A DNA stretch of 27,085 nucleotides from a virus. Lineage: Duplodnaviria; Heunggongvirae; Uroviricota; Caudoviricetes. Every line of letters begins with the position of its first letter. Positions within the stretch are counted from its first letter, which is position 1. Shown piece after piece: positions 18,877-20,131 of this stretch. The position numbers were made by a program, and so were the translations under genes. The notes under the pieces were generated by a model that saw only the letters and a program-made list of their open reading frames with translations, did not search any database and was not told the DNA's origin. The stretch lies in the IMG/VR virus record IMGVR_UViG_2563366854_000005. The stretch is one strand, 5' to 3'.

Positions 18877-19164
18877 CTAGTTGCCGGATGTTGGTGGATT
18901 TTCGCGTTTTAGTTGTTCATAAAAGTGCACAGCTTTAACCAGTTCTTCTGATGTAACTGGGACTGGTGAGGCAGTGAATAAGGCCTGAATTTGATAGTTC
19001 GGCCTGTCGTTACAATCCTCTTTTTTCGGTACATATTTCCAGTCACCAGACCACTACTTCCCCTGAAAGTCCGTAACGCCTTTTTTCACGTAGCGATATC
19101 GCCATGCCACTGGTTTTGCTTGCCCCGCCGTTTCATGCCCTTCCTGATAATTAATCTCGCTCAT
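18877..19164 (-). pseudogene. Hypothetical prophage ORF, 96 codons, interrupted by an in-frame amber codon at codon 37
   Basis: Manual translation: MSEINYQEGHETAGQAKPVAWRYRYVKKGVTDFQGK-TAG-WSGDWKYVPKKEDCNDRPNYQIQALFTASPVPVTSEELVKAVHFYEQLKRENPPTSGN. The frame is maintained across the stop. Confidence 0.3.
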
Positions 19165-19687
19165 TCATCGCCCCACTCATCACAATATGCTTCGACCGGA
19201 GTTTTTCCCGCTTCATAGTCATCACGCTAGGATTCGACATCAGCAGCACTTCCACCGCGTAACTCACCATAGTCCATTAATAGTTCATCCCGCTCTTCAA
19301 AACTGATGTTATATTTAGCTGAACAAAAATCAGCCACTTTGTTCTTCCTCATCGTCTTTTATTTCGTGGTATGAGTAATTGCAGTAGTTAAAGAAAATTT
19401 CTTATGCTCCGTCATGAATTTCCTCAGGTGTTGCGTCATCGTCCACTTCGAATACATCCTCAAAATCTCCACCAGCTATTCCCGTTTCAATAATAATTTT
19501 GAACTTTCGCATTTCACTACCGCCCTTTCGGGCGGCCTCCTGATGTTCTGAGGGTGCAGAAATCCATCCGGTTAAGGATTAAATTTTATTTACAGAACTG
19601 AATTTAATTATTCAGATATACGTATCTGTAGCCTTACGAATCTACTCACTGGATGCCTCTTTCATAAAAATAATCCAGTGGGTTTTA

Positions 19688-20131
19688 TCGTTTTTTCCCT
19701 GTTCGTTGACAGATAACAGGTTTTCTGTCTGTCAGTGCCAGAATCTGGCTTACCGGTATTTGCGTTTCATTCCATTAAAAAATCAGAACGCCGTGCGGCC
19801 TCAACACCCGAAAGGCTTCTTTAAATCTCTGTCGCGAATCATCACGCCAGGCATCTTTATTCAGCCGTCCATATTTCTTTCCCATCCAGGCGTTATCACC
19901 AACACTCTCAAGATGCGGAGGGTCTAATACAACCATCGAAAAAGATGCGTCTGCAAATGATAATGCACGAAAATCTGCGATAATGTCAGGGCTGATAATC
20001 AAGCGTCTCCCATTGCGTAATGTGTATCCTTCTTTTCTGATATCGCTGAATATCGCCCGTTCGTCAGACTTATCGAACCAGAACATGCGGCTGCCACAGC
20101 ACATATCAAGAATGGTTGCCGGTGCACTCAC
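19688..20131 (-). pseudogene. DNA methyltransferase (N6-adenine/N4-cytosine type, DPPH motif) with a premature in-frame TAA
   Basis: ORF 19775-20131 carries motif I (ILDMCCGSRMFWFDK) and motif IV (VVLDPPH). The frame continues for 29 more sense codons after the TAA at 19775-19777 (…HGVLIF-stop-WNETQIPVSQILALTDRKPVICQRTGKKR). Confidence 0.7.

Follow-up and report, generated by a model that had tools for sequence, protein, structure and literature searches.

In-frame stop codons in an early-gene block of a Qin-like Escherichia coli prophage are probably old lesions of ordinary decay

Introduction

The closest described systems are the cryptic prophages of Escherichia coli K-12, namely Qin, Rac, DLP12 and e14. 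These are defective lambdoid prophages that sit at fixed sites and carry IS elements and deletions. Their genes that are useless to the host bear nonsense and frameshift lesions, and their toxin-antitoxin and cold-shock genes are intact. Pseudogene decay in defective E. coli prophages is treated by Bobay, Touchon and Rocha (2014; PMC4143005), as that work is cited in a survey of in-frame stop codons (Belinky et al. 2021, PMC7918605). The survey itself argues that some conserved bacterial in-frame stops are read through, the proposed cases combining an in-frame stop, a recognisable frame beyond it and occurrence in many genomes. In-frame stops of prokaryotes were found to be commonest in the mobilome category, for which the authors suggest the presence of many pseudogenes as a possible cause (PMC7918605).

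At the level of single genes, the best described relatives are the phrog_954 methyltransferases. These are about 155-162 aa long, carry a DPPH motif and are annotated as ‘class I SAM-dependent methyltransferase’ or ‘DNA methyltransferase’ in phages of Klebsiella, Salmonella, Erwinia, Gordonia and other hosts.

Here, we analyse a 27,085-nucleotide stretch of DNA (the window), and within it the 1,255-bp region at 18877-20131. A first-pass annotation had described two minus-strand genes in this region, each interrupted by a single in-frame stop, and had offered very recent inactivation, sequencing error or suppressor read-through as explanations. The window shares with the K-12 cryptic prophages its defective lambdoid character, fixed site, IS elements and deletions, its nonsense and frameshift lesions in genes that are useless to the host, and its intact toxin-antitoxin and cold-shock genes. 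Its allele differs from K-12 Qin in retaining a block of early genes that was lost there. Once repaired, the methyltransferase gene of this block is 80-84% identical to intact phrog_954 genes of Stx2c and Klebsiella phages, but the copy as found is cut by a TAA past residue 118, is frameshifted 26 codons further on and has conserved residues replaced. Its stops also resemble the proposed read-through cases in the three respects named above. They differ from those cases in that they are confined to one allele (≤ 1.1% divergence), occur together with frameshifts and show relaxed constraint. At the annotation level the lesions are already known, as RefSeq marks most of these genes as pseudogenes; the literature on the PhiR42_1 record and on Qin pseudogenes held nothing on this block.

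Results and discussion

A defective Qin-like prophage

The window is a Qin-like defective lambdoid prophage on the E. coli chromosome, beside rspB. The left 12 kb match ydfJ, pinQ, tfaQ, nohA and rrrQ; over the right 15 kb, NCTC9087, O157:H16 strain 98-3133, ML35 and many others have the identical sequence (100%). The RefSeq gene order in the right part begins with cspF, ydfT, ydfU, rem, hokD, relE, relB, ydfV, flxA and ydfW. A partial transposase of ISNCY follows, then three pseudogenes with one stump, DUF977 in truncated form and a piece of recE. The order closes with an IS600 interrupted by an IS30, what remains of recE, and the genes xis, int and rspB. The element is defective: ISNCY and IS600 are present as partial copies alongside the IS30, recE is split and truncated, DUF977 is truncated and the immunity region is deleted. 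The IS600 copy (IS3 family) and the complete IS30 that interrupts it occupy 20792-23171, and the pair splits recE in two.

The loss of the whole immunity and replication region corresponds to a junction at 20368-20377, where an internal recE fragment (plus strand) is joined to mid-DUF977 (minus strand) with an overlap of ~ 10 bases. This deletion removed the 5’ half of the LygF-like DUF977 gene and left a 3’ remnant (20128..20379, minus strand), which RefSeq annotates on the identical stretch of NCTC9087 as ‘DUF977 family protein, missing N-terminus’. Similarity to the intact DUF977 gene of strain 2017-19-1CC begins at window position 20370, and the match to K-12 is limited to query bases 1-133, which are recE. 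The same junction is found in AH21 and NCTC9087, and a different one in E105. Strains 2017-19-1CC and BL12 and the PhiR42_1 record keep the repressor, cro, ydaT, replication-O and full DUF977 genes upstream of the same decayed block.

Four genes with lesions

The two interrupted genes are not adjacent, as first described: six-frame translation places a DUF7167 gene and a 58-codon gene between them, each with its own in-frame stop. Nor are they free of frameshifts, given an inserted G in the methyltransferase gene and deletions of 90 bp and 4 bp in the phrog_660 gene. Both stops first described are real. In intact orthologues, sense codons occupy the positions of the five stops (AAA, AAA, TGG, CAG and CAG), each one substitution away from a stop. 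The frames past the stops align residue by residue with intact orthologues and are thus not due to chance.

The first gene is a small phage DNA methyltransferase pseudogene of phrog_954 (19642..20131, minus strand) with an ancestral length of 162 codons. Its GTG-started open reading frame (20131..19775) has 118 codons and ends at TAA 19777-19775, after which exactly 29 in-frame sense codons precede a second TAA at 19687-19685, as had been reported for the first stop. The ochre codon (TTT AAA TGG to TTT TAA TGG) falls in the motif LIFKWNET, at a position where every intact orthologue has AAA (Lys). The 29-codon extension ends where it does because an extra G at 19699-19697 (GGG, against GG in intact orthologues), 26 codons past the ochre, moves the reading out of frame; ancestrally, the gene stopped at TAG 19644-19642. 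The gene was aligned with intact orthologues from two strains (O157:H7 NE 1092-2 and L65) and three phages (a Klebsiella phage, an Stx2c phage and Salmonella phage ST-35).

Reading the stop as Lys and removing one G yields a repaired protein of 162 aa. Residues 5-161 match positions 52-205 of the 229 in the phrog_954 profile (E = 6.7e-80), and tblastn covers at least 80% of the length in 244 phage records, in which the family measures about 155-162 aa; they range from phages of Klebsiella, Salmonella and Erwinia to those of Gordonia and Streptococcus. The score against Pfam Methyltransf_11 (20.2 bits) is below the cut-off of 21.2, no NCBIfam family matched, and no solved structure matched by sequence. 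The 118-aa stump is probably inactive: conservation of the domain reaches residue 161, and its last quarter is missing. We also considered the short form as the native gene and rejected this, as its sole carriers have the same allele at ≥ 98.9% identity and divergent orthologues are 157-162 aa long.

Three further observations concern this gene in other strains. The O157:H7 orthologue has acquired an independent TGG to TAG change at codon 95 in MB9-1 (locus L005, 2003-2476) and is intact in NE 1092-2 (locus L015, 601-1074). The 157-codon O157:H7 form ends at a TAG; at that codon GAG (Glu) is found in strain L65, in the Stx2c phage and in the repaired gene of the window, all of which run a few codons longer. 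In AH21 (locus L001, 6555-7318), the dead methyltransferase gene is further split by IS1B, with flanks that are otherwise 100% identical to the window.

The second gene is a 60-codon DUF7167 pseudogene (19330..19512, minus strand; PF23768, phrog_1997), aligned with four intact 60-aa orthologues. Its ochre codon at 19404-19402 replaces GCA AAA GA. with GCA TAA GAA. With the stop replaced by Lys, the product matches PF23768 with E = 1e-13 and 51.6 bits, against a gathering cut-off of 24.4. RefSeq describes the gene as ‘DUF7167 family protein, internal stop’. A GC-rich hairpin (GCCGCCC GAAA GGGCGG, ~ 19519-19537, minus strand) lies between an AGGAGG and the DUF7167 ATG. Its 3’ arm GGGCGG is kept in two aligned intact lineages (L004 and L006), in a comparison that covers the 3’ arm only, and there is no T-run behind it, so it is not a canonical terminator.

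The third gene, a 58-codon pseudogene of phrog_519 (19161..19337, minus strand), was aligned with orthologues. It carries an amber codon at 19229-19227 (TGG to TAG) and a change of start codon at 19337-19335 (ATG to GTG), and it is without RefSeq annotation in the carriers examined.

The fourth gene is a phrog_660 pseudogene (18743..19164, minus strand) that has 171 codons when intact. The 171-aa orthologue of O22:H8 strain 154 was among those used for comparison. The intact form matches the phrog_660 profile with E = 6e-72, and only in the 171-aa form of strain 154 does the match extend to the C-terminal end of the profile. In the window, the reading frame from the ATG at 19164 has 36 codons before a TAG at 19056-19054, followed by 58 sense codons up to a TAG at 18879-18877. 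The first of these TAGs had been located correctly; the sense codons beyond it number 58 rather than 59, and the supposed end of the gene at 18877 is a second lesion. Both TAGs replace CAG, which for the second is the codon of the 171-aa orthologue. A 90-bp deletion at about 18901/18900 lies between AATCC[A/G]CCA repeats, and alignment with the 171-aa orthologue reveals a 4-bp deletion at 18846/18845. The ancestral stop is TGA 18745-18743. RefSeq describes this gene as ‘frameshifted; internal stop’.

Both phrog_660 TAGs also occur in a 93% identical lineage (strain PRO_A-1496) that has intact DUF7167 and 58-codon genes and that shares with the window a near-identical mosaic segment from the phrog_660 gene onwards. 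The lesions as a whole predate the deletion of the immunity region (see below), and the two TAGs are older still. Across loci L004 2605-2862, L006 3514-3903, L007 2714-3133 and L012 1650-2073 the gene takes different forms, among them a +2 A insertion in phage vB_EcoS-640R1 and a 1-nt deletion in isolate AF23. The BL12 copy of the decayed allele has two additional 1-nt deletions; decay of the block is still in progress.

Distribution and age of the lesions

The 1,255-bp region is present at ≥ 98.9% identity in 379 of 5,426 complete E. coli genomes (~ 7%), and the next nearest sequence is at 93%. Among the carriers are E. coli W, LY180, CE10, UMNK88 and ML35, and their sources include humans, cattle, pigs, dogs, fish, food and soil from several continents. 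An origin in a laboratory amber or ochre mutant phage was considered and rejected, given 379 carriers of such varied provenance.

AH21, 2017-19-1CC, PhiR42_1 (ECOR13), BL12 and NCTC9087 each carry all six lesion motifs, comprising the five stops and the +1 G. In an alignment of carriers that includes E105, none of the 20 variable sites in 1,411 bases is at a lesion, so the lesions of E105 are the same. Base-by-base inspection covered these 6 of the 379 carriers, and for the remainder the statement rests on the identity ceiling reached by a repaired query, a version of 18877-20131 with all stops and the extra G corrected. Searched against all complete E. coli genomes, this query had a best match of 99.5%, which is exactly those six differences, and no partly repaired, intermediate or revertant allele was found among them.

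The lesions are common to alleles that differ at about 1% of sites. They predate the deletion of the immunity region, because strains with and without that deletion carry them. Very recent inactivation, as first proposed, is thus right about inactivation and wrong about recency, as the lesions are shared by alleles ~ 1% apart and no repaired allele was found. A lone in-frame stop with an open frame beyond it does not equate to a recent event; in this case the lesions have become fixed in ~ 7% of the complete genomes of E. coli.

Genes that end at the same positions were found only in the same decayed allele, the opposite of the outcome by which the first-pass annotation would have been refuted. 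Divergent orthologues of the methyltransferase, DUF7167 and 58-codon genes, at less than 95% identity, all have sense codons at these positions. More generally, orthologues from other lineages do not have these stops, with the exception of the phrog_660 gene, whose decayed form is shared by way of the mosaic segment.

Origin of the stop codons

Across 1,086 aligned bases, the branch leading to the window has accumulated 42 synonymous, 44 non-synonymous and 4 nonsense changes. Placing 90 random substitutions on the inferred ancestor generates 3.9-4.5 stops (about 4.2), against 4 observed. The stop count is thus compatible with neutral drift, and four stops require no special cause. Pairwise dN/dS ranges from 0.06 to 0.34 among intact orthologues and is about 0.2 between the window allele and intact orthologues, which indicates that most of the ~ 8% divergence arose with the genes still under selection. 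If the counts are apportioned by hand between a phase under constraint and a neutral one, the result is ~ 36 neutral substitutions and ~ 1.7 expected stops, against the 4 observed (Poisson P ~ 0.09 for four or more). The excess of nonsense changes is thus mild, falls short of significance and calls for no special mechanism. The methyltransferase also has replacements at residues that are invariant in all orthologues (R76S in HLERVG, L99S, P58S and G141C), as would be expected under drift.

So, how did the stops arise? Most probably, at about 95% in our estimate, they are old and fixed lesions of four neighbouring early genes in a defective Qin-like prophage, brought about by ordinary decay. 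Four consecutive genes of the early right operon (the small DNA methyltransferase, DUF7167, 58-codon and phrog_660 genes) would all be dead. As selection for life as a phage ended, point mutations and small indels would have built up by drift, yielding two AAA to TAA changes, one TGG to TAG change, two CAG to TAG changes, the +1 insertion, the 4-bp deletion and the 90-bp repeat-mediated deletion. The decayed allele would have become fixed in one prophage lineage, and some 7% of the complete E. coli genomes now carry it. The immunity region, which in other carriers is directly upstream of the block, is also deleted here. The early promoter is placed in that region on the basis of lambdoid layout, and with its deletion the block is presumably no longer transcribed from a native promoter in the window. 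Neither recoding nor suppression would be involved, and any translation would end at the first stop codon.

Selection may instead have favoured the nonsense mutations, if early lambdoid genes harm the host when expressed at a low level and each knock-out was adaptive. We consider this very improbable. The two-phase estimate leans towards it, with ~ 1.7 stops expected and 4 observed, but the excess has a P of only ~ 0.09 and is gone if the whole branch is taken as neutral (4.2 expected). The independent methyltransferase TGG to TAG change in O157:H7 MB9-1, in a gene that NE 1092-2 has intact, is a weak hint of selected inactivation, and so are the different breaks that several lineages carry in the phrog_660 gene. 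However, other E. coli prophages commonly hold intact copies of all four genes. Moreover, one polar or promoter mutation would silence the operon, which makes four separate knock-outs unnecessary. Were selection responsible after all, the widespread allele would be a natural record of toxic lambdoid early genes.

It is far less probable still that read-through of the stops continues to supply full-length proteins, whether through a suppressor tRNA or because termination is leaky. The frames past the stops are indeed still recognisable, and there is the published argument that some conserved bacterial stops are read through (PMC7918605), but the same survey allows that the mobilome excess may reflect pseudogenes. 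Both UAA and UAG would have to be decoded, two of the four genes have frameshifts that would preclude full-length synthesis, and invariant residues have been replaced in the window lineage. The carriers are hundreds of unrelated wild isolates, and the stops are limited to one allele lineage and absent across divergent orthologues. The window holds no tRNA genes, and its only Rfam matches are IS009, two cspA thermoregulators and sok, with no recoding element among them. The suppressor background raised in the first-pass annotation is thus unsupported, and the mix of ochre and amber codons, the frameshifts and the replacements speak against it. Sequencing or assembly error in one record, the other suggestion made there, is dismissed by the identical bases of independent complete assemblies from different groups and platforms, with the same stops in six independently sequenced carriers.

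The significance of the stops is mainly one of annotation hygiene: they are real and heritable and should not be corrected as errors. Current records treat the 118-aa methyltransferase stump inconsistently. It is an ordinary ‘class I SAM-dependent methyltransferase’ coding sequence (WP_001310834.1) in NCTC9087 and 2017-19-1CC and a ‘frameshifted; internal stop’ pseudogene in BL12, E105 and AH21. All four genes and the DUF977 stump merit annotation as pseudogenes.

Small elements downstream of the block

Downstream of the decayed block, an Rfam match to the sok antitoxin (104 bits; 18182-18353, minus strand) marks a second hok/sok locus. Its similarity to an intact locus stops at the hok start codon (~ 18180), where ISNCY begins; the toxin reading frame is gone and the sok/mok leader is left. 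A 59-codon open reading frame at 18443-18622 (minus strand; MKNALQFLFVAFWLF...) has an AGGAGG Shine-Dalgarno sequence and a product that is predicted to be hydrophobic. NCBIfam gave no family match for this small membrane reading frame. It is without RefSeq annotation, and phage records annotate an open reading frame on the opposite strand as ‘hornerin’. A lineage with 7% divergence in the neighbouring genes has a copy that is ~ 99% identical.
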